Positions 1-40,343 of a stretch of DNA of 64,000 nucleotides are shown here, in pieces. Source of the stretch: Tubulanus polymorphus (Eukaryota > Animalia > Nemertea). Each line of letters begins with the position of its first letter. Within the stretch, counting starts at the first letter, position 1. The stretch covers positions 10,914,088 to 10,978,087 of the forward strand of contig NC_134031.1 in assembly GCF_964204645.1 (NCBI RefSeq), in the 5' to 3' direction. Below the pieces are notes generated by a model. That model ran no database searches and had not been told where the DNA came from. It was given only the letters and a program-made list of their open reading frames with translations. A program made the translations under genes and the position numbers.

Positions 1-103
1 AGAATTCTTACTTTCTTACTTTCTTAGCAAGAATCTTGGATTCTTACGTACGTCTAGTATATAGAAATATAAATTAGTTTCTATAATATTCCAAATTAGG
101 ATT

Positions 104-715
104 TTATTTTATAAATTTATATTCATAGCGAAATTGTAGTCTCAGTAATAATTTTGAACCTTTATTATTCTTTAATTTATTCATATATTCATCATGTAAT
201 TCAGTAGGTATAATTTGATTTTATTCAAATGATTGTTGCATAGATTTTCTATCTCTATTGTAGAATAAAACTAGAAATCTTATATTCTCCCTAAAGTCTT
301 TAACAATTGAATTATATTTTTGATTTAAAACCCATGTTGTTATCCCAAAATGTCTCCCAGAGAAAGCTAAGTAACATAACTCACTTTCTCTCACTTTTGA
401 ATCATGTAAATTAGCGCAATCATCTACAATGAATAATGTATTTGATCCTTTATAAGTATCAATTGCTATTTTTATGCAATTATCTAAATTTTCTTTTACT
501 GTTTTAGGATCTAATATAATAAACTTTTTTATTTTAACTATATCTCTATTATATGTTTTATTCATTTCATAAGTAGGACAGAATAATATTATATTATCAA
601 AATGATTCTTATAAATAGTTTCTAACAAATCTAATATGAAATGTGTTTTACCACAGTTTGTTACCCCAGTAACTAACATATTATGCGGTTCAAATATAAA
701 TAAATCTTTATTCAT
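104..715 (-). pseudogene. A32/FtsK-like DNA packaging ATPase (element 1), in-frame stop at 221-223
   Basis: Walker A GVTNCGKT, Walker B FIVDD, A32-type SGRH motif. The frame continues past the stop to 104, matching the element-2 C-terminus. Confidence 0.88.
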
Positions 716-1550
716 TTATTCTTTTAATTTTACTAGATAAAATCCATTCATTAAATTTATCATCATATCCTTTATATTTCACCAAAGAATACTTTTTTCC
801 TTTAAGAGTTTTTGTTTTCAATACCTTTTCTATTTTGTATTCTATTTCATCTGGATTTGGTACTAATGATAATTCTTGTTCATAGAAATAACCTAATATT
901 TCTTCATCTTTTAGATCTTCTAGTTTATAAACAAATGGTTTAGTTAATATTATCTTTTTAATCTTGAATATTTCTTCAGTAAAATTTGGGGTATAACCTT
1001 TATAAAATGTTTTTCGATATTTAGAAATTCTAACATGTTGTCCTATTTTAAATTTAGGTTCTCCAAAATCATGTGTAACAAATGCTCCATATAAATTATT
1101 CCAAACTATTTCTGAATTTTCTTCTTTTCTAGCTTGTATAGGTTTCATATTTATAGAACTATGTTTAGAATTATTATAACCTTTAACTAAATCATCTAAC
1201 ACATTGATATATTTATATGTTTCATTAGCAGTGGTTCCACATTCTAGTTTTCAATGTTTTATTAAATCTTTCTATAATAGATGCTTTTTTATCTGAATGT
1301 GTTGAAAAATAATCTACATTGTTATCAGATAATAGTTTTTTTAAATGTTTATTATAGAATTCCTTACCTTCATCAAATTGTATCTTATCTGGAATAGCTT
1401 CTTTAAATATTGATTTAAAAGCATTTGTCATTTCTATACCAGTTTTATTTTTGATTGGAATTGACCATGCGTATCTACTGAATATGTCTATAACATTTAA
1501 TATCCAGAAATATCCTTTGTTGTATTCCTCTAAGTTCTTCATGTCAATTA
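708..1550 (-). pseudogene. Duplicated, N-truncated rve integrase with chromodomain (element 1, copy A), frameshift at ~1230
   Basis: IDIFSRY, QFDEGKEF and ERFNKTLK DDE motifs; C-terminal IEKVL..YSLVKYKGYDDKFNEWI chromodomain. Confidence 0.88.
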
Positions 1551-1607
1551 CCACAGTTTGTTACCCCAGTAACTAACATATTATGCGGTTCAAATATAAA
1601 TAAATCT

Positions 1608-2700
1608 TTATTCATTTATTCTTTTAATTTTACTAGATAAAATCCATTCATTAAATTTATCATCATATCCTTTATATTTCACCAAAGAATACTTTTTTCC
1701 TTTAAGAGTTTTTGTTTTCAATACTTTTTCTATTTTGTATTCTATTTCATCTGGATTTGGTACAAGTGATAATTCTTGTTCATAGAAATAACCTAATATT
1801 TCTTCATCTTTTAGATCTTCTAGTTTATAAACAAATGGTTTAGTTAATATTATCTTTTTAATCTTGAATATTTCTTTTGTAAAATTTGGGGTATAACCTT
1901 TATAAAATGTTTTTTCTATATTTAGATATTCTAACGTGTTGTCCAATTTTAGATTTAGGTTCTCCAAAATCATGTGTAACAAACGCACCATATAAATTAT
2001 TCCAAACTGTTTCCAAATTATCTTCTTTTCTAGCTTGTATAGGTTTCATATTTATAGAACTATGTTTAGAATTATTATAACCTTTCACCAAATCATCTAA
2101 CACATCGATATATTCATATGTTTCATTAGCAGTAAAATATTTCCACATTCTAGTTTTCAATGTTTTATTAAATCTTTCTTTAATAGATGCTTTTTTATCT
2201 GAGTGTGTTGAAAAATATTCTACATCGTTATCAGATAATAGTTTTTTGAAATGTTTGTTATAAAATTCCTTACCTTCATCAAATTGTATCTTATCTGGAA
2301 TAGCTTCTTTAAATATTGATTTAAAAGCATTTGTCACTTCTATACCAGTTTTATTTTTGATTGGAATTGACCATGCGTATCTACTGAATATGTCTATAAC
2401 ATTTAATATCCAGAAATGTCCTTTGTTGTGTTTTTCTAAGTTCTTCATGTCAATTAAATCTGCTTGCCATTGTTGATCGATATATGAAACCATAACTTTT
2501 CTTGTTAAATAAGTTTTATCCATTTTCTTGTGGATTTGATATGTTGGTTGATTTTGTAACCATAATCTTAGTTCACTATATTTTATATTACCATTTTCAT
2601 TATCAGATTTAATTTTATTCCATAATTCTGAAACGTTAGAATACGATACTTCACTTTCTGGGTTGTAATATAACTCTCTTAAATATTGTTCTTTTTTCAT
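1608..2700 (-). pseudogene. rve integrase with chromodomain (element 1, copy B), frameshift at ~1910
   Basis: WQADLIDM, DEGKEF and ERFNKTLK motifs. ORFs 1900-2700 and 1608-1991 join across an A/T-run frameshift. Confidence 0.9.
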
Positions 2701-2706
2701 CTTATT

Positions 2707-3075
2707 TTAATCCATTAATAATAATTTAGATTTAGTTTCAATGACTTTATGATTTGACTTATTTTCTGGTATGATAGGTTTATTATCATTGGAATAATCT
2801 TTATCATCAGATTTGAATTTTGATTTATACATTACACCGGATAATATAATAATTGTGATTAACCCAATTGTAATATATAAGTAATTATTTCTTCCACTAT
2901 TAGAAGAATTAGATGGGTTATTATTTGAATCAATAACAGATAATTTCTGTGATTCATTTATATCAGTTAATTTCTTTTTCTTAGCTTTTTTTAATTCTGA
3001 AGATCTTTTACCTAATTCCTTTGCCCACTGTATTTGTTTCTCAGATCTAGGCTTTTTCCTAACGCCATCACTCAT
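2707..3075 (-). CDS. Small basic protein with one TM helix (homologue of 9591-9974)
   Basis: Lys-rich N-terminus, hydrophobic YITIGLITIIILSGVMY, TAAATG start. Confidence 0.7.
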   Translation of the reverse strand: MSDGVRKKPRSEKQIQWAKELGKRSSELKKAKKKKLTDINESQKLSVIDSNNNPSNSSNSGRNNYLYITIGLITIIILSGVMYKSKFKSDDKDYSNDNKPIIPENKSNHKVIETKSKLLLMD

Positions 3076-3136
3076 TTATTTTAGTTAATTTTTGTTCTGG
3101 TTCATTTTCTGTTTCGACGTTTGGTTGTAGTACATC

Positions 3137-3676
3137 TTATTCGTTCTTACCTGATTTATATTCCATAGGTTTGATATTCGGAAATGTTATGACGCCAGTA
3201 GAAATTAATGTCATAACCGATCCTAATTGGAATGAAGCATATCCAACCCATTTTTGTAATTCAGTCATAACTAAGTAGTCATTTTTCAAATAACTATATA
3301 ATTTATTTTCATCATCAATTGGTATTAACTGGTTACATAACTTAGAATAACATTTGACAATACCATCTGAAATAGAATCATTTATTCTAGCTAATCTAGC
3401 TTCTTCATAAATCTTAAAATATTTTATTACTTTATCTGGTTTCATAGCATCTAATTCTTGAAAAGTAATGGTCTTAGTTAAAAATTGTTTACACTTTCCG
3501 CTAGCAATTAATAGTTCAAGATGGTGTTTACAATATAAGTAGTATTCATAATCTATATTGCTATTAACTTGAATATTATTTTCAATTTTGGTTGGAATAT
3601 CCTTATTATCACTAATACCTAAATCATCTAATGTTTTTTCAATATCAATACTATTCTTACTCGATTTCTTTGACAT
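3137..3676 (-). CDS. Conserved Polinton hypothetical protein (homologue of 8996-9598)
   Basis: Highly similar to the element-2 ORF, stops earlier, TAAATG start. Confidence 0.7.
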   Translation of the reverse strand: MSKKSSKNSIDIEKTLDDLGISDNKDIPTKIENNIQVNSNIDYEYYLYCKHHLELLIASGKCKQFLTKTITFQELDAMKPDKVIKYFKIYEEARLARINDSISDGIVKCYSKLCNQLIPIDDENKLYSYLKNDYLVMTELQKWVGYASFQLGSVMTLISTGVITFPNIKPMEYKSGKNE

Positions 3677-4245
3677 TTATATTGGAGAAATTTAATAAGA
3701 AAAATATTATAAGTATTATAAAATTATACTAGTCTCTCTTTAGGTTAAGACTAAATTGACTAGGTTAGTTAAAGTTAAAGAATTTCTATTCAAATCTTTT
3801 CAAAATCTATTCAATCAAATGTCAATTAGAATTACCAAAAGAAAATATTAAAAATATAATAGAATTCACTAGCAGTTGAAGTTATTGTTTTTTATTATAT
3901 TTTATTTAAATTAGGATTTAATATCTCACTACTATTGTCTATCTATTAGGAGCAGTAATTATAACTGTCCAGATAAGTCATTTCGGATTCTCGATAATAA
4001 ATCCTAAAACTGAAAATAAATTCAAAGAAACGACTGGTGGAAATACTATTTCATAAACACATATATTTTATTCTACAATCATTAACGATGTCCACATTCC
4101 AAGCCGCTCGGCAGCCGAGCGGTAAGGTATGCGCGGAATGCGGAAATCAATAAAGTATAATACAACATCTGTCACTGTGTGTGACATTAACAACAGCTGA
4201 ATGACGCAATTGAAATTCCGGCAAACGTAATATGAATATTTTAAG

Positions 4246-4439
4246 AGTAATAGGGATAATATGCTTTCAAGCTAAAGGTCGAGAGGTTGAGAAATTTTAC
4301 AAATATGAAAATAACAATAATTTCTAGTTGAATTAGGAGTGCGCGCGACTAATTCCACTAGAAATTATTGTTATTTTCATATTTGGAAAATTTCTCGACC
4401 TCTCGACCTTTGGCTTGAAAGCCTATTATCCCTATTACT
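4246..4439. repeat. Terminal ~194-bp imperfect palindrome (hairpin) of element 1
   Basis: AGTAATAGGGATAAT...ATTATCCCTATTACT; arms pair up to a central GAGTGCGCGCGA loop. Confidence 0.92.
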
Positions 4440-5955: not shown

Positions 5956-6980
5956 CAAGAAAATTAATTTTAGAAAATTATTTGACGCCTGCGAAAAAAA
6001 TGTAGAATTTCTGGGCTAAGCTAATGTGGAATTGCAAATTTGAAATCGAAGTTTTAAGAAATTTGGGGAATGATGAGATTTGGCGATTGGGTAGATGATA
6101 CAGGTCTTCGACTCTAGTAGTAGTTTAAATTTTTTTTAATGAAAATTCTCAATAATTGATCGCGAACTTGCGACCGACTTCATTTACTTATGCCTCTAAG
6201 CTGGTCTGCAACTTCATAGCCTCCATGGTTGAAGAGAGAGCTCTTCTGATGTCTGCTTCATCATGACTTCGAGCATATCGTGTGGCCTAGCCAGCCGGCC
6301 CGGGCCACGGGTTTGGCTGTCACTCGATATCCTAGAGTTGAGTCTGGGTGGGTTGAGGTAGACATTGTCATTTAAAATAACATGCTTATGTTGTTCTGTA
6401 TGAATTACCCGTGTGTCATGTATGTTGTATTAATTTATTTTAAAATTTGTATTTATTGAATTTGGGAATTTTATCCCGGAATTTCAATGTAATAAGGATC
6501 AATAAAGAATTGAATTGAATTGTCACCTAATTCACATGCCATCAGAGGACGCGGAGCCGTATATGACAGCTATGCTATTATAAATTGCTAATTTCACGAA
6601 ACCTGCATACTCCTAATATCAAACATATTTTCTAAAACGTTTGAATATTGAAATTATATGTTTACACATTTTCATATTGACCGCTTGTAGCCGCTGATGA
6701 AATTCACGCCGGCCCTACACACATCGTAAATAGCTTCGTCATTCCACCGGCATGCCCACGTCAGGGTCTGACTTTTATATCAGACTTCCAAATCGTGTAT
6801 ACATCCGCCATTTAACCGAATAATCCGATTTACTTATCATTTCTATTTATGCCTGCCGCTTCTGATATAATCATACATCCTTCACTATTACAATACGTCT
6901 TCTAATGATATTCAATGCAATATAACATTTCGACGTTCAAATATAGGTCATTACATAATCACAGGAAGCCATTCTACATC

Positions 6981-7769
6981 AGTAATAGGGATTTAGTTGT
7001 TCTATACCAAAGGTCGAAAGGTCGAGCCCGAGAAATTTTCCAAAATGTTAAAATAATAATAATTTCTACTTGAATTAGTCGCGTACACTCCTAATTCAAG
7101 TAGAAATTATTATTATTTTAACATTTGGAAAATTTATCAACCTCAACCTTTCGACCTTTGATATAGAACAACTAAATCCCTATTACTCTATCTAATCACA
7201 AGTCTCATAATTTACAAGCCTCAACATGTTGAGTATTGCGTATTACATGTTGATTCTAGAACAACCCATCTAGAAAACTACATTAGCCAATCACAGTTGA
7301 GTATTACGCTAGCCAATCACAGTTGAGTATTTCCAGCCAATCACAGTTGAGTATTTTACTATTAATCTATCCAATCACAGTTGAGTATTTCCAACCAATC
7401 ACAGTTGAGTATTTTACTATTAATCTATCCAATCACAGTTGAGTATTACTCTATCCAATCACAGTTGAGTATTCCCTATTACACTAGCCAATCACAAGCC
7501 TCATAATTTACAAGTCTCAACACGCAGCTGGGTTTTCCCCACTGTTGAGTAGTATAAATAGGTGGGACTCACACGCGGTAGGACTCATACGTGGCGGCGG
7601 GACGCGTTGAGAGGTAAGTGTTATGTTCAATTTTAATAAAAAATATAGTATTAAAATGGAAGCAAATAAGTACTACTGTCCAACATGTAATATCGATATA
7701 GATAAATCCCAAAAAGCAAGACACAATAAAACTAAAACACATTTAGAGAATAAATTGAAACTAGAATAT
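6981..7769 (+). repeat. Left TIR of element 2; first 207 bp (6981-7187) form an imperfect hairpin
   Basis: Reverse complement of 23869-24657 (one mismatch seen near 7364). Confidence 0.95.
7287..7619 (+). promoter_or_regulatory. TIR-borne Pol II-type promoter: CCAAT array, TATA box, 5' splice donor
   Basis: Seven CCAATCACAGTTGAGTATT units plus an eighth CCAAT, TATAAATA at 7553-7560, AG|GTAAGT at 7612-7619; mirrored at ~24019-24351 upstream of pPolB. Confidence 0.65.
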
Positions 7770-7892
7770 TCACAGTTATATTCAGAACAGTTAACAAAGG
7801 GAAAGAAATTTATTGAATTATGGAATAATGATCCAAATAATGAACAATACGTTGAGGATCCGATGTTTATACTAGAACATGATTCTATTTGA
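7623..7892 (+). pseudogene. Chimeric ORF: pPolB N-terminal zinc finger fused to a copy of the HNH C-terminus
   Basis: First 49 aa identical to the start of 22168-24015; the rest resembles 8581-8665. Confidence 0.7.
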
Positions 7893-8018
7893 GCCTATAT
7901 ACATTCCATGTAAAGAGCTATGGAATTAATCTATAAATTCACAGCTGTTACAGCTGTTACTATGACGCTGAGATATTATAAAATGTTAACCAATTTAGTA
8001 AAAAAATACGTATAATAA

Positions 8019-8691
8019 ATGGAACCAGAACAACCACAAACTATCAATATTACAAATAACACTGGCGTTATAAACATATATTACAAGAAGTGTTCTAAAT
8101 GTGAATTAAATAAATCATTAACAGAATTTAGTAAGCGTAAGATTAGCAAAGATGGTTTTCAATATTACTGTAAAACTTGCATTAAACTATATACCAAACA
8201 ATATCGAGAAGATAATAGAGAATCTTATAATGATTATGACAGAATATATGAGAGAAAGATATCAAACAGATCTTAATTTTAGATTGAAACAATGTTTACG
8301 GTCTAGATTAACACAATTATTTAACAAAGAAACATATTCAGAAACACTATCTAATTTATTGGGTTGTTCAGATGAATTTCTCAAATCATGGATTATATTT
8401 CAATTCGATGATAAAATGAATATAGATAATTATGGGGATTATTACCATATTGATCACGTGTTACCAATATCTAAATTTAACATGAATGATGAATACAATA
8501 AAAAACTTATTTGGGGTTGGAAAAATTTAAGGCCTTTAGAAAAGAAAGAAAATCAAACCAAATCTAATAAACTAGATTTACAGTTATATTTAGAACAGTT
8601 AACAAAAGCAAAGAAATTTATTGATCAATGGAATAATAATCCAAATAATGAACAATACGTTGAGGAATTTGATATCAAGGATCCGAAATGA
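8019..8691 (+). pseudogene. Zn-ribbon plus HNH-like endonuclease, frameshift at ~8240
   Basis: KKCSKC..CKTC ribbon, then YHIDHVLPIS..WKNLRPL..EN..KSNK; resembles HNH nucleases of large DNA viruses. Confidence 0.7.
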
Positions 8692-8995
8692 CTTATCTGG
8701 ACAGTTATAGTTACTGCTCCTAATAGATAGACAATAGTAGTGAGATATCAAATAGAATTTAAATAAAATATAATAAAAAAAACAATAACTTCAACTAGCT
8801 AGTGAATTCTATTATATTTTTAATATTTTCTTTTCAAAAAGAGAATACTTTATATTTTGAATAGATCCGAATAGAAATTCTTTAAATTCAAATAGCTAGT
8901 ATCAGTAGTCAATACTAGAATTCTTTAGCTTTAACTAGCTAGTATCATTTGAAGAATACTTATAATATTTTTTTTGCTTTTTTTCTCTAATATAA

Positions 8996-9598
8996 ATGTC
9001 AAAGAAATCTAATAAGAATAGTATTGATATTGAAAAAACATTAGATGATTTAGGTATTAGTGATAATAAAGATACAGTTGTTTCTAATTCTATTCAAGTT
9101 AATAACAATATAGATTATGAATACTATTTATATTGTAAGCATCATCTTGAATTATTAATTGCTGGCGGGAAATCTAAGGACTTCTTAGGAAAAATAATAA
9201 CTTTTCAAGAACTAGACTCTATGAAACCCGATAAAGTAATAAAATATTTTAAGATTTATGAAGAGGCAAGATTAGCTAGAATAAACGACTCTATAAGTGA
9301 TGGTATTGTCAAATGTTATTCTAAGTTATGTAACCAGTTAATACCAATTGATGATGAAAATAAATTATATAATGATTTGAAAAATGACTATTTAGTTATG
9401 ACTGAATTACAAAAATGGGTCGGTTATGCTTCATTCCAATTAGGATCGGTTATGACATTAATTTCTACTGGAGTTATAACATTTTCGAACATCAAACCTA
9501 TGGAATATAAATCAGGTAAGAACGAAACAGATATACTACAACAAAACGTCGAAACAGAAAATGAATCAGAACAAAAATTAACTAAAATAAATGAGTGA
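8996..9598 (+). CDS. Conserved Polinton hypothetical protein
   Basis: Intact 200-aa ORF with a homologue in element 1. Confidence 0.72.
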   Translation: MSKKSNKNSIDIEKTLDDLGISDNKDTVVSNSIQVNNNIDYEYYLYCKHHLELLIAGGKSKDFLGKIITFQELDSMKPDKVIKYFKIYEEARLARINDSISDGIVKCYSKLCNQLIPIDDENKLYNDLKNDYLVMTELQKWVGYASFQLGSVMTLISTGVITFSNIKPMEYKSGKNETDILQQNVETENESEQKLTKINE

Positions 9599-9974
9599 TG
9601 GAGTTAAGAAAAAGGCTAGATCCGAGAAACAAATTAAATGGGCAAGAGAATTAGGTAAAAGATCATCAGAATTAAAAAAAGCTAAGAAAAAGAAATTAAC
9701 TGATATAAATGAATCAGAGACTTTATCTGATGGTGCCGTACGGCACCCACATGGTGGTATTGATTCAAATAATAATCCATCTAATTCTTCTAATGCTGGA
9801 AGTAATTATAAATTATATATTACAATTGGATTAGTAACAGTTATTATATTATCCGGCGTAATATATAAATCAAAATTCAAATCTGATGATAAAGATGATT
9901 CCAATGACAATAAACCTATCATACCCGAAAATAAGTCAAATGAAAATAAATCTAAAATATTATTAATGGATTAA
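9591..9974 (+). CDS. Small basic single-TM protein
   Basis: 127 aa, hydrophobic LYITIGLVTVIILSGVIY, homologue in element 1. Confidence 0.7.
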   Translation: MSDGVKKKARSEKQIKWARELGKRSSELKKAKKKKLTDINESETLSDGAVRHPHGGIDSNNNPSNSSNAGSNYKLYITIGLVTVIILSGVIYKSKFKSDDKDDSNDNKPIIPENKSNENKSKILLMD

Positions 9975-9977
9975 AAT

Positions 9978-11061
9978 ATGATGAAAAAAGAACAATATTT
10001 GAGAGATTTATATTATAACCCAGAAAGTGAAGTTTCATATTCAAGTGTTTCAGAATTATGGAATAAAATTAAATCTGATAAAGAAAAAATAAAATATAGT
10101 GAATTAAAATCATGGTTACAAAATCAACCAACATATCAAATCCACAAGAAAATGGATAAAAAATATTTAACAAGAAAAGTTATGGTTTCATATATTGACC
10201 AACAATGGCAAGCTGATTTAATTGATATGAAAAACTTAGAAGAATATAACAAAGAATATTTTTGGATACTAAATGTTATAGATATATTCAGTAGATACGC
10301 ATGGAGTATCCCGATTAAAAATAAAACTGGTATAGAAGTTACAAATTCTTTCAAATTAATATTTAAAGAAACTATCCCAGATAAAATACAATTTGATGAA
10401 GGTAAAGAATTTTATAACAAACATTTTAAAAAACTATTATCTGATAACGATGTAGAATATTTTTCAACACATTCAGATAAAAAAGCATCCGTTATAGAAA
10501 GATTTAATAAAACATTGAAAACTAGAATGTGGAACCACTGCTAATGAAACATATAAATATATCAATGTGTTAGATGATTTAGTTAAAGGTTATAATAATT
10601 CTAAACATAGTTCTATAAATATGAAACCTATACAAGCTAGAAAAGAAGAAAATTCAGAAATAGTTTGGAATAATTTATATGGAGCATTTGTTACACATGA
10701 TTTTGGAGAACCTAAATTTAAAATAGGACAACATGTTAGAATTTCTAAATATCGAAAAACATTTTATAAAGGTTATACCCCAAATTTTACTGAAGAAATA
10801 TTCAAGATTAAAAAGATAATATTAACTAAATCATTTGTTTATAAACTAGAAGATCTAAAAGATGAAGAAATATTAGGTTATTTCTATGAACAAGAATTAT
10901 CATTAGTACCAAATCCAGATGAAATAGAATACAAAATAGAAAAGGTATTGAAAACAAAAACTCTTAAAGGAAAAAAGTATTCTTTGGTGAAATATAAAGG
11001 ATATGATGATAAATTTAATGAATGGATTTTATCTAGTAAAATTAAAAGAATAAATGAATAA
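9978..11061 (+). pseudogene. rve integrase with C-terminal chromodomain, frameshift at ~10535
   Basis: DDE motifs as above. TGGAACCACTGC replaces TGGAAATATTTTACTGC seen in element-1 copy B. Confidence 0.92.
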
Positions 11062-11669
11062 AGATTTATTTATATTTGAACCACATAATATGTTAGTTAC
11101 TGGAGTTACAAATTGTGGTAAAACACACTTCATATTAGACTTGTTAGAAACTATTTATAAGAATCATTTTGATAATATAATATTATTCTGTCCTACTTAT
11201 GAAATGAATAAAACATATAATAGAGACATAGTTAAGGAAGATAAAAAAGTTTATTATATTAGATCCTAAAACAGTAAAAGAAAATTTAGATAATTGTATA
11301 AAAATTGCATTAGATATTTATAAAGGATCTAATACATTATTTATTATTGATGATTGCGCAAATTTACATGATTCAAAAGTTAGAGAAAGTGAGTTATGTT
11401 ATTTAGCTTTCTCTGGTAGACATTTTGGGATAACAACATGGGTTTTAAATCAGAAATATAATTCAATTGTGAAAGACTTTAGGGAGAATATAAGATTTCT
11501 AGTTTTATTCTACAACAAACATAGAAAATCTATGCAACAATCATTGGAAGAAAATCAAATTATACCTACTGAATTACATGATGAATATATGAATAAATTA
11601 AAAAATAATAAAGGTTCCAAATTACTTATGAGATTACAATTTCCATATGAATATAAATTTATAAAATAA
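11054..11669 (+). pseudogene. A32-like packaging ATPase, frameshift at ~11245
   Basis: GVTNCGKT, IIDD and SGRH motifs; extra A in an A-run. Confidence 0.9.
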
Positions 11670-11685
11670 AATCCTAATTCAAAAT

Positions 11686-12063
11686 ATTATAGAATTCACT
11701 GTATACTAATGGATGAGTGGATGAATTGGATGAATTGGATGAATTGGATGAGTGGATGAATGGATGAGTGTAATAATATATATATTTTACTTTTTAACAC
11801 ATAAATTGGAAGAATAGTATGAGTATAAATATAATATTTATATTCTTTATTAAATTTAACACAATATATATATATTATTAAAATAATATTTAAATATAGT
11901 ATAAAATTGATAAAATAACTTCAAATCAAACTCTTACTGTTTAAAAAATAAAAAACATATGTAAATTATATATTATTACACTCTTCCACTCTTCCACTCT
12001 TCCAACTCATCCAACTCATCCAACTCATCCATTCATCCATCAATATACAGTGAATTCTATAAT
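11686..12063. repeat. Inverted-repeat cassette between the convergent gene blocks
   Basis: ATTATAGAATTCACTGTAT...ATACAGTGAATTCTATAAT; ~100-bp arms made of GGATGA(A/G)T(T) units. Confidence 0.85.
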
Positions 12064-12067
12064 CTTT

Positions 12068-13099
12068 TTAATTTTCATTTTCATATTTTTCTTTAAGCTT
12101 ATTGTATTCTAAATATATATCCCTTTGCATTTTCTTTGGTATAATTCCTAAATAATTCTCGAGTTTATATTTCCTGAATGTTTCTCTTGAAAATATTTTT
12201 GGAATATAATTTTCGATTTCAGTTTTAGATGGATGTTTATTTAAAAATTCTCTAAAATCATCATATTTAAGTTCAAATAAGTTCATTGCATAAGTAACAT
12301 TTGGTTTAAAGTTATCTAACTTTTTCAATATGGTAACTATATCATTACTCAATAAATAATCTATAAATGTTTTTCTATACCACCGATAATCTAATATATT
12401 CTTATTATTAAATTTTGGATTTATAACTGTTGGATTTTCTATTACATTATCTGTACCAATATGTTTAATTGAGTATTTATGATTCAATTGTTTATCATAT
12501 ATTACATATTCTTTACATTTTTCACACCAAGATTTAAATACTTGTATTGCATGGGCTGAATCATTTCCACCTTTTGTTTTTAATTTATAATGTTTTGCCC
12601 AATTAGCCTTTGTTATACATTCATTACAGAAGGCACAATAATTCTGATCCTCTTTGCATTTATCTTTATATATATTGGCATATGTTTTTACTAATTGTAA
12701 AATATGTTCATCTTTTTTGATGTGTAATAAATAATCATTATAATTATCAAAATCTTCTTCACAATACATACATCTAATGTTATCTTTTGGTTGAACATTT
12801 GATTTTTCTATTTTAGGTTCAATATTATATTCTATTTTTGTTTCAATCTTATCATCATTCGATGTAGAAGGTATAACATTATCTTCTATTTTATATTCAA
12901 TATCATTCTTATCTTCTATTTTAGGTTCAATATTATCTTCTATTTTTGTTTCAATATTCTTATCTATTTTACTTATTCTATATTTGAATTGATTAAAGTA
13001 ATCTCCAAAATACTTACTGTATTCATCATAAGGTAATATTTAATATATATCTGATATCATTTCACTTGGAGATTGTATTTCATATATTCCACCTTCCAT
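12068..13099 (-). pseudogene. Zinc-finger protein with IE(T/P)KIED repeats, frameshift at ~13040
   Basis: CxxC..H..H motifs. The frame of 12068-12769 stays open upstream to ~13040; TAAATG start at 13099. Confidence 0.6.
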
Positions 13100-13131
13100 T
13101 TAATATAAGATTTTTTATTAAAGTTAAAATT

Positions 13132-14379
13132 TTAATACATAACACTATCTAATTGTGAATTTACAATATTTAATTGCGCGTCAGATATAATATAAATGTG
13201 CATTTTAAAATTTTTGATTCCTTTTTTCTTTGTTATGAATAATTGTATTCCATCTTTTGTATTTTGTAGTTTTTTCCCAGAACCATGTAATGAATTATCT
13301 TCAGTTGTTCTAAAATCTAACCATAATGCATATTTATTACCGGTATAATAATCAATTTGATTAATGTTACAATTTTCAAATGATTTCACTTTTTCATTCA
13401 TAAAATGTTTTTTAATTTCTACCCATTGATCAATCATTCTCATTCCTTGACAGAATATTTTATTCGCTATTCCTTCGATAGTTATTTCTACTTTTGTTAT
13501 TTCGGGATTATAATAATTATCAACATTTATTGCACCATTAGTATACGTTCCAATGGTAAAAAATATTAATATACCTTTAATAGATCTTCTAGGAAAGTTA
13601 ATATTCTCATTAATTATTTCATCATTTGCATTAATAGTTACAGTTTTAAATTTATCAATATAATCATATAATAATGAAAACCCTTGATTATATTTAGTTT
13701 GAATTATACTTGAAATATTTTCATCAGTTACTGTATCATATTCTAAACATATATTCGATAATTTATAACTCATATCTTTAACAACACTAGATAATACAAT
13801 TTCATTTACAGGAGCAAGTGTTATCTCAAATATAATATCTTCTTGAATTGCGTATTTATATAAAGGTGCATTATTATTTATCAATTCAAAGTCTAATGGA
13901 ATTTTATATTTGCTTCCATATATACTTTTTATCAATTTATCTACATCATTTGTTAATATTGCGCTATTAGCTTCTGATCTTAATTTATTTTGGTTTTCTG
14001 ATTGAATTCCTTGAAATATCATATTATTTCTATTTTCTTTAGTTAACCATAAATCTTTATAATGCATAAATAAATTATAATCATCTAATGAGAAAACTGT
14101 TTCTGGACCAATCTTTATTGTTAACTTTTTAATCAAATATCTTCCAACATTATCAACAACATAATTATTATTATTACCGATTACTTTTATATCAGCTGAT
14201 AAATAAATACTATTTGGAACATAAAAAGTATTTTGTGTTAATCTAGGAATTCTAACATATAAAGTTTCATCGGGATTAATATTTGAAGGGTTATGAGTAA
14301 TTATATGATGTGATCTTTCTGCTTTAATAGCATTAGATATTCTATGATTCTTCGAAGGACTTATATAACTCCCACTCAT
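13132..14379 (-). CDS. Major capsid protein (double jelly-roll, hexon-like), intact
   Basis: 415 aa, beta-rich; size, context and sequence pattern match Polinton-like MCPs. Confidence 0.8.
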   Translation of the reverse strand: MSGSYISPSKNHRISNAIKAERSHHIITHNPSNINPDETLYVRIPRLTQNTFYVPNSIYLSADIKVIGNNNNYVVDNVGRYLIKKLTIKIGPETVFSLDDYNLFMHYKDLWLTKENRNNMIFQGIQSENQNKLRSEANSAILTNDVDKLIKSIYGSKYKIPLDFELINNNAPLYKYAIQEDIIFEITLAPVNEIVLSSVVKDMSYKLSNICLEYDTVTDENISSIIQTKYNQGFSLLYDYIDKFKTVTINANDEIINENINFPRRSIKGILIFFTIGTYTNGAINVDNYYNPEITKVEITIEGIANKIFCQGMRMIDQWVEIKKHFMNEKVKSFENCNINQIDYYTGNKYALWLDFRTTEDNSLHGSGKKLQNTKDGIQLFITKKKGIKNFKMHIYIISDAQLNIVNSQLDSVMY

Positions 14380-14423
14380 TTATTTAACAAAAAAATTAAT
14401 TATTTATTTTTTGATATCATGGT

Positions 14424-15899
14424 TTACTTGATATTTTTTGATATCATATTCACTAACCCAAAAATAATTGCACTTACAACTGTAATTAAAAATAAAATAA
14501 TATGTTCAGCAGCAAAGTTAAGAATATTACCTGCAGATTTCAATATAAAACCAACAATTGAAGCAATAACTCCTGGTAAAGCTGCAGCAGATTTTTTAGA
14601 TAGTTCCCATAAATATTTTGCTAATTTCTTTAAACCATCTTTAACTTTATCTTGTATAGAATTATTACCTGGAGGTTTATCTGGTTTATTGGGAGTAGGT
14701 GTAGATTTCAAAGCATTTGATATTGCTAAACCAATTGTTGTAAATAACATAGTTACAGCTGTTAGAATTGAAAGAATTGTTATTCCTTCTAATTTAAATA
14801 ATAACTTTATTCTGTCTTTTAATGATATTTCAGAATTTGGTTTAATCAACAAATCTTTAAAAATAACTTTTAATCTATTTATATTATAATCATATGATTT
14901 TAATAATAATTTAATTTCTTCTTTTTGTAATTCTATGTTATATTCTAAATCATCAATTTCTTTTTCTAAATATGCATTTCTTTTTTTAAATTCAATTTCT
15001 TCAATAACTTTATTATCTCTATCTAATTTTAATTGTTCTATTTCTTTATTTTTATCAGTTCTTTCTTTTTCTAAAGTTCTAATTTTAAAATCTCTTATAC
15101 TTTTATCATGCGCAATTTTATCAGATGCAAGTCTTATACTAATAATTTCTCTAATTGCTTTATCAGAAAATATATCTAAATCTTCTAATTCTTGATCTGT
15201 TGCATCAAGTAACCCATTCGGTAAAAGTTTTTCAATTGGAACTTTATTTGATTTAAGTTTACTAGTTTTGGAAGTTATATTCTGTTCAGAAGTTGTTTCT
15301 GTTTCTAAATTATTATCGATTGTTTCAAATAATTCATTAATTCTTTGTTTAAATACTCTTTCATTTTTAATAATTTCTTCTTGTGTTACATCTTCTGGTT
15401 CATTACTATTTCTTATTCTTTTAATTCTAGATAGGTCTAACTTAAGCAAAGTTGATTCTGCTAATATTTTTTCTTGTTTTTTATAAGAGATATCAATATA
15501 ATAATCATCTTTCAAACGATAATAATATTCACCATCTAAAAACTTTAATTCTTGTACTAAAAGTCTAGCGCCTCTGGTATTGATATTATATCCAGATTTT
15601 TCAAATATAGGTTTGAAATTATAAATATATTCATTATATTTTTAATTTTGTTTTACTAAATCTGGATTTTCATTTTCAGGATTTATTCTCGATCTAGTTC
15701 TTCTATCAAATTCATCTGTTGATTGACCTTTAGAACCACTATCTGCTAAATTAGAATTATATGCTGATTCATCATCATTATCAATATTAGTTTCATTAAA
15801 TTAGTTTCATTTATTAGGTTGTGGTTCATCATCAATATATCCTTCATTATTATTTCCCATTTCTCCCATTTCATAATCTTCTCCACCTTCTACATCCAT
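14424..15899 (-). pseudogene. Coiled-coil protein with C-terminal hydrophobic/amphipathic helices; frameshift from a short duplication at ~15790-15810
   Basis: Acidic N-terminus from TAAATG at 15899, coiled coil, GITILSILTAV.. and AAALPGVIASIVGFIL.. segments. Confidence 0.65.
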
Positions 15900-15915
15900 T
15901 TACATAATAAAAAAA

Positions 15916-17304
15916 TTAAAATTTAAAATATAATATTCCTCCGATTACAATTCCTATACAAGTTATAGCTAATTTAGTATTTTCATGGGATTTATTATCA
16001 TCATTTAGTTTAATTATATCATGTTGAATTTTATCAGTTTTTATATCTTCTGATGTATTGTAATCTTTTATTTTAGAATCATTAACCAATTTAATATTCT
16101 CAGTTTTAGTTTCAGTTGATTGAATGTGTTTTTTATTTTTTTCACCTTCCATTAATTTTGGAGCAGTAATAATCTTTTTATTTATATCATTCAATCCAAA
16201 TGAATTATTTATTGTTGCAGTTTTAATTAGATTATTATAACCAATTATGTTTCCCATCTTTAGTACTAAATCATTAGAAATAATTAATAGATTAGGGCCT
16301 ATACAATAATTAAGTCTTACATGAGATTTATCTAAATAATTTTGATATCTTATAATGTTTTCTGGAATCGATCTATTTTTATCATTATGTATGGAATCTT
16401 CAAATAAAACTTTAAATTGTTTTTGTGTATCGAATGATGTATTCAAATTTCCAATTATTGGTGATCTTGTTTCAACTTGTGATCCTAGAATACAAATCAA
16501 ATAAGTTCTAATAGATTGATTTATTCTTTCTATACCTGATTTAGTAAAACCTTCACTATTTTCTAAAATAAAATATACCCAACCATTATTGTTTTCTTGT
16601 TTTAAATTATCATAAAATTTTGGTAATTTATTGAAATTTAATGTTTCTAAATCCTTTGTTTCTATTTTACCATAACCTAATTTTTTATTATAGATACTAT
16701 AAAAACTATTAGATGGTATAGGAAGTGCACAATATTCTGCAATCTTTCTAGGGCAAGGAAGTGATCTTATTGTTCCAGTTTTTGTTCTAAAATCAGAATT
16801 ATTTATATCTATATTAAATTCATTACAAATTTTATAAAACTTTGATAAATTAATATTATTATCTAATTCTTTAAAATATCTAGATCCTGGTAAAGCGCAC
16901 TCTAATTCATTTAATATTATTCTGATTTGAAAGTATGTATGAAATCTAAATAAACTTTGAATTAATTTATATTTAGAATTATTCAAATGATCATTCCAAC
17001 TAATTCCACATCCTGTTGTTGCACAATAAACAGCAAAATTTAATTGATTCTGCCAATACTTCATATTAGATTTTAATAACCATTGTTTTTCATCTTTCAA
17101 TTTTTTAAAATTAATTAAATATACATGAAATATATTTTCCATTTTTGCATTAAAATTATTAGTTTCAGTAACATAAATATATAAATCAATTAATGAATCT
17201 AAAACTTCATTTCTATATGTAATATCTTTATTAAAATCTATTGCTGGAATATTATATTTAATTGATTTATTATATTGGAAAGCTTTTGGAAAACTATCTA
17301 CCAT
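15916..17304 (-). CDS. Polinton-associated protein with C-terminal TM anchor
   Basis: Intact 462 aa, WQNQLNFAVYCATTGCGIS motif, hydrophobic C-terminus. Confidence 0.7.
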   Translation of the reverse strand: MVDSFPKAFQYNKSIKYNIPAIDFNKDITYRNEVLDSLIDLYIYVTETNNFNAKMENIFHVYLINFKKLKDEKQWLLKSNMKYWQNQLNFAVYCATTGCGISWNDHLNNSKYKLIQSLFRFHTYFQIRIILNELECALPGSRYFKELDNNINLSKFYKICNEFNIDINNSDFRTKTGTIRSLPCPRKIAEYCALPIPSNSFYSIYNKKLGYGKIETKDLETLNFNKLPKFYDNLKQENNNGWVYFILENSEGFTKSGIERINQSIRTYLICILGSQVETRSPIIGNLNTSFDTQKQFKVLFEDSIHNDKNRSIPENIIRYQNYLDKSHVRLNYCIGPNLLIISNDLVLKMGNIIGYNNLIKTATINNSFGLNDINKKIITAPKLMEGEKNKKHIQSTETKTENIKLVNDSKIKDYNTSEDIKTDKIQHDIIKLNDDNKSHENTKLAITCIGIVIGGILYFKF

Positions 17305-17321
17305 TTATATAATTAAAAAAA

Positions 17322-17756
17322 TTAATAATTTATTAATTCTTTTAATAATTTATCTTGTTCTTCAACTGTTATATGACCATTTAAACTTATTATATAATCT
17401 AGTGTGTTCTTTAATTTATTAATTTCTTTTATATTAGATTTTATTTTTTCTTTATTACTTTTTATATTTAATTTTGAACTTATACCAGTTAAAACACTTG
17501 AACTTAATCCTAATACACCAATTGATATAGCTAAAGGTGTTAATGGACTGAATATTGCTAAAAATGTTATTACAGAACTAATTGTAACCGAACCACTAAT
17601 AATAAGATAATATATAATTTTACTTTTTAAATATTTTTTCTTTTTTATCTTTAAGTCACTTTCAAATTCTAATATTTGTTTTTCTAAATATGTTTTTAAT
17701 TTAGTTTTATTTATATCATGAGGAATAATATCAATATTATCAACTTTATCTTCCAT
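17322..17756 (-). CDS. Two-TM membrane protein
   Basis: 144 aa, two adjacent hydrophobic helices flanked by basic segments. Confidence 0.68.
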   Translation of the reverse strand: MEDKVDNIDIIPHDINKTKLKTYLEKQILEFESDLKIKKKKYLKSKIIYYLIISGSVTISSVITFLAIFSPLTPLAISIGVLGLSSSVLTGISSKLNIKSNKEKIKSNIKEINKLKNTLDYIISLNGHITVEEQDKLLKELINY

Positions 17757-17775
17757 TTATTTAGAATAAAAATTA

Positions 17776-18198
17776 CTAATTAGTAAACTTATAAGCAATA
17801 AATATAACAATAACTGTTCCACCTAAAATCCATATTATTTCATATTTTTGTTGTTCTTCACTTGGGGTATAATAATCAGATAATTTAGGTTTGTATAGAT
17901 GTAATTTTTCTTTCTTTGTTACCGCGTTATATAAACTCATTGCATCATCAACTGATTGAAAATCTCTGTGTGAAATCTTCTGATCATATAATTCTTTATT
18001 GATGTAATCCATATAGTTTTGTCTCTTTTCTCTATATTCTTCTGCAGCTTTATTGTATTTCTCTAACGCTAAGTTATGTCTTCTTTGTTCTCCTAATGAA
18101 CTATTTTTATCAATATGTTTAAATAAATAACCACCACCAGTAAATGCTAAAGCGTTAACAATTGCCGATCCTATAATAGTTATAATTGCAGAAGCCAT
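17776..18198 (-). CDS. Membrane protein (hydrophobic N- and C-termini)
   Basis: 140 aa, MASAIITIIGSAIVNALAFTGGGYLF, C-terminal TM segment. Confidence 0.68.
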   Translation of the reverse strand: MASAIITIIGSAIVNALAFTGGGYLFKHIDKNSSLGEQRRHNLALEKYNKAAEEYREKRQNYMDYINKELYDQKISHRDFQSVDDAMSLYNAVTKKEKLHLYKPKLSDYYTPSEEQQKYEIIWILGGTVIVIFIAYKFTN

Positions 18199-18223
18199 TT
18201 ATTTAGCAAAAAAAATTATGCAT

Positions 18224-18445
18224 TTATATGGGAGGAATATATTTTTGTTTTTCCAAATAATCAATTGTTAAATTAGATAAAGTAACTGCTAATGTTAACT
18301 TTAAAATATCATTTATATCAAATCTATCAACATTAACACTTCCCATTTTGAATACTTTTTTTAATACCATTGAATAACCAACAGTTCAAACTGATAGTAA
18401 TGCTCCATTATATAATCCAGTTATTATCCACTTATTATCACTCAT
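18224..18445 (-). pseudogene. Small hydrophobic protein with internal TGA (absent from the ORF track)
   Basis: MSDNKWIITGLYNGALLSV*TVGYSMVLKK..DYLEKQKYIPP; TAAATG start; fills the gap in the gene array. Confidence 0.55.
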
Positions 18446-18787
18446 TTATTTATCAAAAAAATTACTATCATCAAAATATTTAGTTAACTTATTTATGATT
18501 AATTCAACATTTATTTCATTACTAGTTTTATGATTATCATATATTTTGGTTAATATGTTTTTAATATCTTCAATAATTCCATCTTCATTTAATTCATAAT
18601 ATTCTAAAGGTGATTTAATTAAATCAAATACTTTTTCTATATTATACTTTTCTTTATCAATCATTGACGCATTGTTAAATGATTTACTTTTTATATCAGT
18701 AATTACGTCATTTAGTTTAATTCTCATTTCTTTACCATGTTTAAAATCAAACCCAAAACATATACTCGGTCCAACAGTAATATTCAT
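18446..18787 (-). CDS. Hypothetical protein
   Basis: 113 aa, TAAATG start, tightly packed in the array. Confidence 0.6.
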   Translation of the reverse strand: MNITVGPSICFGFDFKHGKEMRIKLNDVITDIKSKSFNNASMIDKEKYNIEKVFDLIKSPLEYYELNEDGIIEDIKNILTKIYDNHKTSNEINVELIINKLTKYFDDSNFFDK

Positions 18788-18804
18788 TTATATAGTGAAA
18801 AAAA

Positions 18805-19563
18805 TTACTCTTTACATCTTATAACTAATTCATAAATTACAGGGAAATTATTTAAATCAATTAAGTATCCATTATGATTTCTAATTTCTAATCTAAAATT
18901 ATTAAAACTAGGAATGCATGGTTTGAAATCACATTCTGTTAAATTATAATTTATTTGCGTTCCAAATTCTTTAACATTTTTTAATGGTAAAATATTTAAT
19001 ATACTAGAATTACATGTTGTATCTTTAGTTGCTTCAAATGTTTTTGTTGGGTCAATTAAATTGCAATAAATATAAAAATGTGTAAAAGGTATTATATTTG
19101 AAATACCTTCTACGTTTACTGTAACAACATCTGGTTCAATTCCTAGCAATTTAGCTATAGGTTTTTTTACCATAAATGCATGTTGACTTTCATCAAATAC
19201 CTTTATTTTAATTCTATTTGAGCTATCACTTTTTATAAATCTTATTGAAAATTTATCATCTTTTCTAATTTTCAACCGTGCTCTACGATTAATTTCTTGA
19301 GATAATGTTTCTAAATTATATAATCCTGGTCTTAGAAATAGATGAAACCATTTATTTATATTTCTAATATGAATTAAAAAAGTATTATGTTCAATAGTTT
19401 TATTCGATATATTGTAAAAAGAATTACATAAACTTATATTTACTAATTTTAAATCAACACAATTCTTAAATTCTCTATCTAATTGAACTAGTAAATTATG
19501 TGATTTATAATTTGTAAGTTTTCTAGAATCAACAAATATTCTGTATTCTTTTAATTCCACCAT
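18805..19563 (-). CDS. Minor capsid (penton-like) protein
   Basis: IFVDSR, NSFYNIS, PGLY, IYCNLI and LEIRNHNGYLIDLN patterns typical of Polinton/virophage single jelly-roll pentons. Confidence 0.72.
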   Translation of the reverse strand: MVELKEYRIFVDSRKLTNYKSHNLLVQLDREFKNCVDLKLVNISLCNSFYNISNKTIEHNTFLIHIRNINKWFHLFLRPGLYNLETLSQEINRRARLKIRKDDKFSIRFIKSDSSNRIKIKVFDESQHAFMVKKPIAKLLGIEPDVVTVNVEGISNIIPFTHFYIYCNLIDPTKTFEATKDTTCNSSILNILPLKNVKEFGTQINYNLTECDFKPCIPSFNNFRLEIRNHNGYLIDLNNFPVIYELVIRCKE

Positions 19564-19580
19564 TTATTTTACATATTTTC

Positions 19581-19922
19581 TTATTCGAAATCTATTTCAT
19601 GGTGCCCTTTTTCATTCTTACCTTTATATATGAAATAGAAATCACCAGAATATAATTCTTCTAGATCTTCACTTGATAATCTATGAAATCTATCTGGTAA
19701 ATAAGTTCTGAATTTATATTTATTTCCTTTTAATCCTTCATATTCTAAATGAATTACTAATTTATCTCCATATTTATTAGTAATTGTTTCAATGTTAGTT
19801 ATTAAATATTTCTTGTGAATTGTTAACTCAGTTAGTTTTTTAAATTTATAATCTACAGATTTGACGCTTGAAGTATCTTTAATTCTATCTAAGAATTCAC
19901 TGTGTACTTGTTTACTCTCCAT
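19581..19922 (-). CDS. Small protein next to pPolB, possibly an OB-fold ssDNA-binding protein
   Basis: 113 aa, beta-rich (YLITNIETITNKYGDKLVIHL..TYLPDRF). Function inferred only. Confidence 0.45.
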   Translation of the reverse strand: MESKQVHSEFLDRIKDTSSVKSVDYKFKKLTELTIHKKYLITNIETITNKYGDKLVIHLEYEGLKGNKYKFRTYLPDRFHRLSSEDLEELYSGDFYFIYKGKNEKGHHEIDFE

Positions 19923-19950
19923 TTATTATACAAATTTTTATTGAAATTGA

Positions 19951-22900: not shown

Positions 22901-24015
22901 ATCTTTATATTATTATCTCTTTCTATTTTTGGGATGTCTTTAATTATAACAGGATACTTATCTATCTTATAATTATTTTCAAATGGTTTATAATGAGTTA
23001 ATCTAAAACTATGTGTAATATCTTCTGTTGGATGTAAACAACTTATTATAGCCCATAGAAAACATTTATCATCTTCATTTTGTACATTTATTACAGCATT
23101 AGTTTTAAATGGTAGTTTAATATAACTTGATGCTTCAATATCTGGTTCTTTATAATATGATAAATTATTTTCATCAATTGGTTTTGATTTAGTTAACTTA
23201 TTATATTTTGTGTTATAAACATGTAAAGTTATAAATATTATCTCATCAAATATTAAACCAGATCCTTCAAAATATTTCTCTTCTATTTTAGTTTTTACTT
23301 CATTATAACATTTATCTAATTTATCATCTATATGTTGTTTAGATATAATATGTTGTGAATGAGAATTTATATTATATATTGGTTTATCTTCAGATTTTAT
23401 GAATTTAACTTTAGAAGATATACTTATTTTAGGATATTCAACATCAGTTATTATTTTTATTATTTCTTTCATATTTTCTAAATGTTTTTTATTTTCTTCT
23501 AATGTTTTACCTTTATGAAATTTAAACTCGATAGCTGCTGGACCAATATCACTTTTAAATGCTTCGGTTATCTCTATATCTTTTTTATTATCTAATGAAT
23601 TAATATAATTTCTTACATCTTCCATGTATGGTCTTTTATTGTTTAATTTATTTTTTATTCTTTTAATTGTCTTCTGTTTCTTATCGTTATCATTATCAAA
23701 ATAATCTTCACCTAAAATATCATTATTCTTATTTCTAATATGACTTATAGATTTTAAATGTTCTTTATAATATCTTTTATCACTGAATGATTGATTACAT
23801 GTATCACATTTGTATGTTTCTTTTTCATCCTTTAATTCTTCTAATTTATTTTCTAATATATCATCTTCATATTCTAGTTTCAATTTATTCTCTAAATGTG
23901 TTTTAGTTTTGTTGTGTCTTGCTTTTTGGGATTTATCTATATCGATATTACATGTTGGACAGTAGTACTTATTTGCTTCCATTTTAATACTATATTTTTT
24001 ATTAAAATTGAACAT
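19951..24015 (-). pseudogene. Polinton-type family B DNA polymerase (~1350 aa), in-frame stops at 22168-22170 and 21676-21678
   Basis: Exo motifs (YGDFES, FHNLSGYD, YLKSDV) and Pol motifs (YIDANNLYG, KLMNNAFYGK, YFDTDS). The three ORFs share one frame. Confidence 0.95.
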
Positions 24016-24657
24016 AACACTTACCTCTCAACGCGTCCCGCCGCCACGTATGAGTCCTACCGCGTGTGAGTCCCACCTATTTATACTACTCAACAGTGGG
24101 GAAAACCCAGCTGCGTGTTGAGACTTGTAAATTATGAGGCTTGTGATTGGCTAGTGTAATAGGGAATACTCAACTGTGATTGGATAGAGTAATACTCAAC
24201 TGTGATTGGATAGATTAATAGTAAAATACTCAACTGTGATTGGTTGGAAATACTCAACTGTGATTGGATAGATAAATAGTAAAATACTCAACTGTGATTG
24301 GCTGGAAATACTCAACTGTGATTGGCTAGCGTAATACTCAACTGTGATTGGCTAATGTAGTTTTCTAGATGGGTTGTTCTAGAATCAACATGTAATACGC
24401 AATACTCAACATGTTGAGGCTTGTAAATTATGAGACTTGTGATTAGATAGAGTAATAGGGATTTAGTTGTTCTATATCAAAGGTCGAAAGGTTGAGGTTG
24501 ATAAATTTTCCAAATGTTAAAATAATAATAATTTCTACTTGAATTAGGAGTGTACGCGACTAATTCAAGTAGAAATTATTATTATTTTAACATTTTGGAA
24601 AATTTCTCGGGCTCGACCTTTCGACCTTTGGTATAGAACAACTAAATCCCTATTACT
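23869..24657 (-). repeat. Right TIR of element 2; hairpin at 24451-24657
   Basis: Inverted copy of 6981-7769. Confidence 0.95.
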
Positions 24658-24817
24658 TACATCTATGTCAATAATATTTTGCCAGAAAGCTTGTTTGTGT
24701 ACACATAGACCTGTGACGTTTTTCACATCGATTTACGGCTGTCGTTTGTAAAATGACGCTGAATGGTTAACATTGTTTAGGTTTCATAATGGTAACGTTT
24801 TATAAGGCGTCAAAAAA

Positions 24818-26856: not shown

Positions 26857-26900
26857 TTTCGATCGATTTCGACCCATCTCTTCGAGTCCTTTTCAAGAAA
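26857..26900 (-). ncRNA. Minimal hammerhead ribozyme variant (U3-A8) in the Penelope pLTR
   Basis: Inverted copy of the motif at 28540-28583. Confidence 0.6.
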
Positions 26901-40300: not shown

Positions 40301-40343
40301 GAAACCACTTCCCAAGTGGGCATGGTGTCCCTGGACCCCTAGT
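37335..40343 (+). mobile_element. Tandem HINE family A copies carrying a ~154-bp satellite array
   Basis: TTTTTAGCCCACTTGGGA start, (CGTC)n, subterminal TCCCAAGTGGGC, 3' stem-loop then CTAGTT. Starts at ~37335 and ~38060, ends at ~39797 and ~40343. Confidence 0.8.

Follow-up and report, generated by a model that had tools for sequence, protein, structure and literature searches.

Long, strand-polar terminal fold-backs in a Polinton with a predicted terminal protein from Tubulanus polymorphus

Both ends of an integrated Polinton in the DNA of Tubulanus polymorphus (element 2; 6981..24657, no strand assigned; 17,677 bp) are imperfect palindromes of about 200 nt that fold better on the 3'-terminal strand. 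This is a real feature and a type of Polinton end that differs from the known ones; hairpin priming as such is already in print for related viruses (available passages of 10.64898/2026.07.28.741278). The explanation that we prefer, with a probability of about 0.5, is that replication is primed by a terminal protein (TP), and that the fold-back, formed on the single-stranded 3' end, would act as a local panhandle, rebuilding the duplex origin and shielding it. Positions refer to the window, the whole stretch of 64,000 nucleotides that was analysed.

Anatomy of the element and its terminal fold-backs

The assignment to the Polinton-class viruses, made in the original prediction, was borne out by the presence of a protein-primed family B polymerase (pPolB), an rve integrase, an A32-type ATPase, a double-jelly-roll capsid protein, terminal inverted repeats (TIRs) and a target-site duplication (TSD). 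Polintons end in AG...CT and generate TSDs of 6 bp. Element 2 has TIRs, AG...CT ends and the 6-bp TSD TACATC on its left (6975..6980, + strand) and right (24658..24663, +). Its TIRs of 789 bp each (6981..7769, +, and 23869..24657, -) differ at only two positions (384 and 747), and at none in the first 207 bp.

The coding body has a GC content of about 20-26%. The pPolB gene (19951..24015, -) is a single frame with two stops and the order TP-vOTU-exo (with an endonuclease VII-like insert)-palm; Pfam matched pieces of the pPolB, whose TP domain is a prediction. The integrase carries a chromodomain and is split into two frames (9975..11061, +; Pfam, PF00665, E 3e-9), as is the A32-type packaging ATPase (11054..11669, +; Pfam). 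A His-Me finger (HNH/endonuclease VII-like) nuclease gene consists of two overlapping frames (8019..8691, +; phrog_1035, E 1e-5 and 8e-12). Integrase, ATPase, nuclease and polymerase genes are thus all interrupted in this copy. The capsid protein is encoded by a 415-aa ORF (13132..14379, -), the model of which (pLDDT 88) matched the PBCV-1 capsid (E 6e-17, TM 0.64). A frame at 18805..19563 (-), without Pfam or PHROG match, is possibly a minor capsid protein, a label that we assume from the look of the sequence; a 113-aa ORF lies at 19581-19922. No adenain or other protease family was found by Pfam among 21 frames of the element, a search that could miss a divergent protease.

The left TIR holds a copy of the region upstream of pPolB and of its first ~50 codons. 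An array in the subterminal DNA (7287..7560, +), with eight CCAATCAC units, a GGGTTTTCCC motif (7530) and TATAAAT (7553), may serve as a promoter. In the left TIR region (7600-7892), a chimeric frame (7611..7892, +) joins the start of pPolB to a copy of the 3' end of the nuclease gene, the segment 7758-7858 being 89% like 8569-8666 in the tail of that gene. This chimeric frame suggests that the left end was rebuilt from the right end. Further inside, an imperfect long inverted repeat (11668-12081; RNA fold -152 kcal/mol, z -19) lies between the convergent ATPase and 323-aa genes, and a related contig (L004) has a perfect 30-bp stem directly after its ATPase gene; the repeat is possibly a bidirectional transcript-end signal.

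The visible part of a related Polinton (element 1; 1..4439, no strand assigned) lies inverted with respect to element 2, with 88-95% DNA identity in the genes and a tandem duplication of ~900 bp (641-2599) that covers pieces of integrase and ATPase. No TSD partner is visible, as position 1 of the window already falls within the element. The host ORFs that flank the elements (4509-5742, 24974-26284 and 26591-28446), of which one encodes a PHD finger and another a reverse-transcriptase fragment, probably belong to other transposons. The host DNA also contains fold-back elements that are probably MITEs (51427-51588, with a 66-bp stem, and 35769-36133, with 120-nt arms) and satellite arrays with units of 154 bp and 31 bp (37421-41756, 51770-52371 and 56282-57129).

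Long imperfect palindromes had been predicted at both ends of element 2 and at the visible end of element 1, and folding supported all three (194-207 nt, z about -23 to -26, each against 200 shuffles). The left fold-back of element 2 (6981..7187, -) has arms of 98 and 97 nt and a 12-nt loop, and a CT at 7188-7189 continues its inner arm; read forward it folds at -83.3 kcal/mol (z -24.8), less well than its minus strand, which is the 3'-terminal one. The right one (24451..24657, +; -90.2 kcal/mol, z -25.8), with an AG extension at 24449-24450, is an exact inverted copy of the left, mismatches included. The fold-back of element 1 (4246..4439, +) has 91-nt arms, a 12-nt loop and an AG extension at 4244-4245, and its two strands fold at -81.8 and -86.9 kcal/mol (z -22.6 and -22.5). 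None of the 200 shuffles was as good in any case. As a single TIR sequence makes up both ends of element 2, the window holds two independent hairpins, not three.

At either end, the element 2 hairpin has the same six mismatches and one bulge, which are therefore older than the integration, and an assembly artefact is excluded because the loop is conserved in the diverged element 1. The loops read TCGCGTACACTC and TCGCGCGCACTC. The original prediction that the elements share both the loop and an arm asymmetry stood for the loop and for GGTCGAG (outer) against GGTTGAG (inner), the single asymmetry strictly common to both, but not for a second C/T asymmetry, which is offset by one base between the elements.

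Arms within an element are 93% (91/98) and 95% (86/91) alike, compared to 75-79% between elements 1 and 2. As had been predicted, segments differ between the elements on both arms together: in 17 of 98 columns both arms carry a letter specific to the element, and 15 of 97 pairs changed on both sides, compared to 0-2 in slid controls (two distinct rows only). Blocks of 14-15 nt have been replaced on both arms, which points to copying from arm to arm; as such copying can also yield paired changes, these alone are no proof of selection on pairing. Both arms end in CCCTATTACT, the most conserved block between the elements, so that each end carries an inner att-like copy, in agreement with the two att-like sites per end of the original prediction.

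The DNA next to the element 1 hairpin (4003..4245, no strand assigned) has no significant match to the element 2 TIR, although the adjoining hairpin is conserved. This region, which lacks a counterpart in element 2, contains short palindromes and has a higher GC content (37%). The control regions near the ends seem to differ between the elements. Retention of the hairpin while the subterminal DNA became unalignable favours a function for the hairpin.

Strand polarity, the inner extension and relatives

The 3'-terminal strand folds better than the other strand in element 2 (-90.2 vs -83.3 kcal/mol), in element 1 (-86.9 vs -81.8) and in a third hairpin, that of the distant locus L111 (-42.2 vs -33.3), compared to strand differences of just 0.4-2.8 kcal/mol in five control palindromes. 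In these three, the 3'-terminal strand has 5, 3 and 5 G·T pairs and the other strand has none. All five distinct transition mismatches in the two stems of the window are T·G on the 3'-terminal strand, the other five mismatches are non-wobble, and the outer arm carries G or C at 11 of 11 substitution mismatches. With the five wobbles of L111, 10 of 10 favour the same strand (sign test ~0.002, for sites that are not fully independent). The polarity hypothesis was formed before L111 was found; a strand-biased mutation could mimic the pattern.

The loop has the same orientation at the three ends of the window, two of them independent, which alone is weak evidence, with a 1-in-4 chance even under flip/flop. 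In parvoviruses and poxviruses, hairpin transfer and resolution of dimer junctions invert the hairpin in half of the progeny, asymmetric resolution being the exception. Such transfer would erase the strand polarity of the wobble pairs, which argues against flip/flop here.

The inner arm, which reads ...ACT|CT in element 2, element 1 and L111, exceeds the integrated tip by 2 nt. At the four outer flanks the ACT|CT is never completed, and CT makes up 3-5% of the nearby dinucleotides. Retroviral integrases trim two bases from the ends of their DNA. The simplest reading of the inner extension would be that the integrase removes two bases from a free AG-AGTAAT end.

The relatives compared were 80 capsid loci (the best 80 of 117) and 41 polymerase loci. 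Among these best 80 capsid loci, the five closest metagenome contigs (L001-L004 and L009; major capsid protein (MCP) 70-76%) stop before any terminus, and the MCP of element 2 has no loci in the viral_contigs or phage collections. Seven of the 41 polymerase loci, short or of giant viruses, were dropped; an inverted inner copy of the AGTA[GA]T start was found in 2 of the remaining 34, most of which have no demonstrable terminus. One is L111, where a fold-back of 129 nt starting AGTAGTTAGGG (z -10.3/-12.0, 3'-terminal strand better) lies where ORF-poor DNA gives way to an intact pPolB gene of 1248 aa; its terminus was judged by this position, with no TSD. L111 is a distant Polinton with the same plan, that is, the polarity, the 2-nt extension and an intact pPolB.

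On the question of other copies, raised by the original prediction, L111 thus has a fold-back with the same polarity and 2-nt extension, but five distant candidate ends lack a long one: L020, L027, L103 and L125 gave z scores of 0.5, -1.1, 0.2 and -0.4 in their first 150 nt, and L088 has just a short imperfect stem. Therefore, the fold-back is dispensable in the wider group, and the feature is patchy and recurrent, not universal. L020 has a 24-bp stem 134 nt inside its end. In a quick tree, L111 and element 2 fall in different supported clades; on that tree, their fold-back ends may still have a single origin. Only three independent hairpins are thus available overall, those of element 2, element 1 and L111.

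Hairpin motif scans of viral_contigs gave 0, 5, 1 and 1 matches, none with the genes of element 2; L127 was rejected as a hairpin-ended relative, being a tailed phage. At L124:428-2176, two adjacent palindromes of ~830 nt with mutually inverted centres lie upstream of tandem repeats and a broken pPolB. They were rejected as a terminus: being flanked by TA runs, they are in our judgement probable MITE or foldback insertions; they may also represent a flip/flop-like terminus. Ten contigs from G002-G006 yielded one usable TIR pair (that of L125) and no clean TSD-bounded element. The polymerase piece matched 103 times in G002 (C315, C493, C581, C606 and others), where several partial copies lie inverted; this record, catalogued as bacterial, looks like mis-binned eukaryotic DNA rich in Polintons.

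The priming machinery and known systems

The pPolB N-terminus of element 2 was aligned with those of 43 of 99 longer homologs (44 rows). The predicted TP domain (23215..23577, -; residues 151-271 of the frame 22171-24027) was modelled as beta0-beta1-alpha1-beta2-beta3-alpha2-loop-beta4, a four-stranded sheet plus beta0 and two helices. The candidate linking residue, Ser256 (23260-23262, -), lies in G-S256-G within the alpha2-beta4 loop and is Ser in 44 of 44 proteins; the vOTU protease domain (22738..23130, -) has its Cys322 and His420 equally invariant (44/44). In the passages available from PMC11161782, the linking Ser or Tyr of the TP/D1 fold is found close to Gly or Pro in the stretch that joins alpha2 to beta4, and the TP domain is related to the little finger of Y-family polymerases such as PolIV. 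The same relationship was found here: in the PDB, the model matched Y-family polymerases best, the PolIV little finger among them, though each match alone is weak (E 4e-3 to 3e-2). The closest polymerases (67-72% identity) are themselves of full length and have motifs A, B and C.

Judged from this predicted TP domain and active vOTU, protein priming appears intact in the lineage. A lineage that had switched to hairpin priming would be expected to lose the TP Ser and the vOTU residues; their invariance makes such a switch less likely. In addition, no Rep/HUH or resolvase family was matched among 24 ORFs (Pfam), no HUH Rep nickase or helicase in Pfam (21 element 2 frames) or PHROGs (10 frames), and no protelomerase in Pfam. 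Priming by hairpins of parvovirus or poxvirus type with resolution, proposed in the original prediction, is therefore disfavoured by the intact predicted TP Ser and vOTU, the lack of a Rep or resolvase match in these searches, the single loop orientation and the polar wobbles. Hairpin priming is a possible interpretation, less supported than TP priming.

Two nucleases were considered as partners of the hairpin. A link to the endonuclease VII-like motif in pPolB was rejected, as the motif occurs in 87 of 99 homologs, in plain-ended L027 and, in the passages available from PMC5803895, in moth Mavericks. HNH-type genes are carried by both element 2 and L111, but the separate His-Me nuclease gene is found at varied positions in 4 of the 80 capsid loci (best 80 of 117) and is absent beside the end of element 1. 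A regex search for HNH motifs misses the gene of element 2 itself, which makes it uninformative on plain-ended loci. Neither nuclease is tied to the hairpin by these data, and either may act as a nickase.

The genome plan is that of the Polintons/Mavericks (adintoviruses) in the available passages of Starrett et al. (PMC8502044) and Krupovic et al. (PMC11161782), with TP-vOTU-pPolB, rve integrase and chromodomain, A32 ATPase, double-jelly-roll capsid, TIRs, AG...CT ends and a 6-bp TSD, but terminal fold-backs of ~200 nt are not mentioned in those passages. An adintovirus in the sense of Starrett et al. (same passages of PMC8502044) has an adenain cysteine protease, which was undetected in element 2 and in the 14 ORFs scanned, out of 25 listed, of the complete relative L027, where a divergent protease could be missed. 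Fold-back ends were not found described for pPolB Polintons in passages of PMC8502044, PMC11131425, PMC11296320, PMC4046053 and 10.64898/2026.10.13.758929 (open full text); casposon TIRs with internal palindromes do occur there.

As regards novelty within the clade, which the original prediction had left conditional, hairpins are already described for virophages and one PLV subtype, but for no pPolB Polinton in the literature passages searched. The passages available from 10.64898/2026.07.28.741278 describe, for four subtypes of virophages and a single one of PLVs, palindromes within TIRs that adjoin the TSD, preferentially in elements that lack pPolB, and propose hairpin priming. The Halocafeteria seosinensis virophages and PLV subtype 4 of that preprint share with element 2 the TIR palindromes next to the TSD and integration by rve, but theirs measure 52 nt (example) and belong preferentially to non-pPolB elements, although its supplements may list pPolB cases. 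Those studied here measure 194-207 nt and come with a pPolB with predicted TP, covariation, strand polarity and the 2-nt inner extension.

Streptomyces telomeres, according to the available passages of PMC4513846, also combine a 5' terminal protein with palindromes folding on the single strand at the 3' end, of which the terminal one pairs with another further inside, and this coexistence supports the TP-primed reading. They differ in their internal origin, end patching by Tap/Tpg, several short hairpins and unrelated proteins.

The terminal hairpins of parvoviruses/AAV and poxviruses are likewise imperfect fold-backs of 100-200 nt. Unlike element 2, in which terminal hairpins were found but no HUH Rep (Pfam, PHROGs), these systems need a Rep or resolvase, usually show flip/flop isomers and have no protein primer of the pPolB kind.

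Explanations of the fold-back ends

From the observed anatomy, fold-backs, polarity and 2-nt extension, together with the predicted TP domain with Ser256 and active vOTU, we infer the following course. The free genome would end in 5'-AG-AGTAATAGGG, the full end being preserved in the inner arm, and pPolB would initiate on Ser256 of the TP, displacing a strand. The 3' end of the displaced or excised strand would then fold over ~200 nt and recreate the terminal duplex without the far TIR. As only the 3'-terminal strand would have to pair, G·T wobbles would be tolerated, and occasional copying from arm to arm would keep the drifting arms matched. Before joining, the rve integrase would trim the terminal CT from each 3' end, giving an AG...CT provirus with its 6-bp TSD, and the terminal protein would be lost as well when the unjoined 5' dinucleotide is repaired. 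A counterpoint is that the paired 3'-OH is a ready primer, so that self-priming must be suppressed or tolerated; the polymerase could also have retained its TP through inertia, or prime in both ways.

Self-priming with fixed polarity is the first alternative, and rather unlikely. The folded 3' end would prime pPolB, an asymmetric nick by the integrase or the His-Me nuclease would restore one orientation, and the TP would be retained or serve only in patching ends. The left end of some parvoviruses provides a precedent for such a nick. In the fold, the 3' end is indeed paired precisely where the genome body begins, on the best-folding strand, nuclease candidates exist in the HNH-type genes of element 2 and L111 and in the endonuclease VII-like motif of pPolB, and the model has been proposed for protist virophages (available passages of 10.64898/2026.07.28.741278). 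Against it stand the invariant TP Ser and vOTU residues, the spread of the endonuclease VII motif to plain-ended relatives and moth Mavericks (PMC5803895, as above), the mobility of the free HNH gene among relatives together with its absence beside the end of element 1, and the preference of the palindromes of the preprint for non-pPolB elements.

A role in integration or excision is clearly unlikely. Here, the two att-like sites per end would receive staggered integrase cuts, the outer on one strand and the inner on the other, possibly in a cruciform, leaving folded 3' overhangs for TP-primed patching. The CCCTATTACT block at the end of both arms, most conserved between the elements and alike in L111, would fit such sites, and the geometry would give a fixed orientation and use the 3'-terminal strand only. 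The window shows neither an excision footprint nor a solo hairpin, the host chromosome would be broken, and excision by retroviral-type integrases is not known.

We also doubt that the fold-back is a neutral by-product, in which fold-back repair or a template switch duplicated the end inverted and gene conversion between the arms keeps the match with no function. The replacement of 14-15-nt blocks on both arms points to copying, the left end of element 2 has undergone another rebuilding event, and most of the distant ends sampled have no fold-back. Against this, the hairpin persists over 21-25% arm divergence while the neighbouring subterminal DNA was wholly turned over, one mismatch and the loop flanks are kept beside converted blocks, and L111, placed in a different supported clade, has the polarity and the 2-nt extension again.

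Covalently closed telomeres of poxvirus type, resolved from concatemers with flip/flop isomers, would fit the long AT-rich stem with few mismatches, and mismatches matter in vaccinia telomeres (available passages of PMC8956199), but the single orientation at all three ends, the strand-polar wobbles, the intact predicted TP and the lack of a resolvase or protelomerase match in the searches above make them very improbable.

A hybrid end in some Polintons can be put forward tentatively and is not likely. Two integrase sites ~200 bp apart at each terminus would allow staggered cuts to free the provirus with folded 3' overhangs, the fold-back then being a primer or a Streptomyces-like template for TP end patching. 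If true, it would explain how a provirus becomes a free virus, a route missing so far, and would link the DNA viruses primed by protein with those that end in hairpins.

On the preferred, TP-primed reading, the unprocessed tip of the virus, which exceeds that of the provirus by 2 nt, seems to be preserved in the inner arm, and the strand polarity tells which strand folds. How Polintons shed the TP before integration is unclear according to the available passages of PMC11161782. The occurrence of long fold-backs together with a predicted intact TP tests the hairpin-priming model proposed for related viruses and argues against generalising it. The fold-back ends offer testable handles on three steps of the Polinton cycle: the start of replication, the exit from the chromosome and the shedding of the terminal protein.
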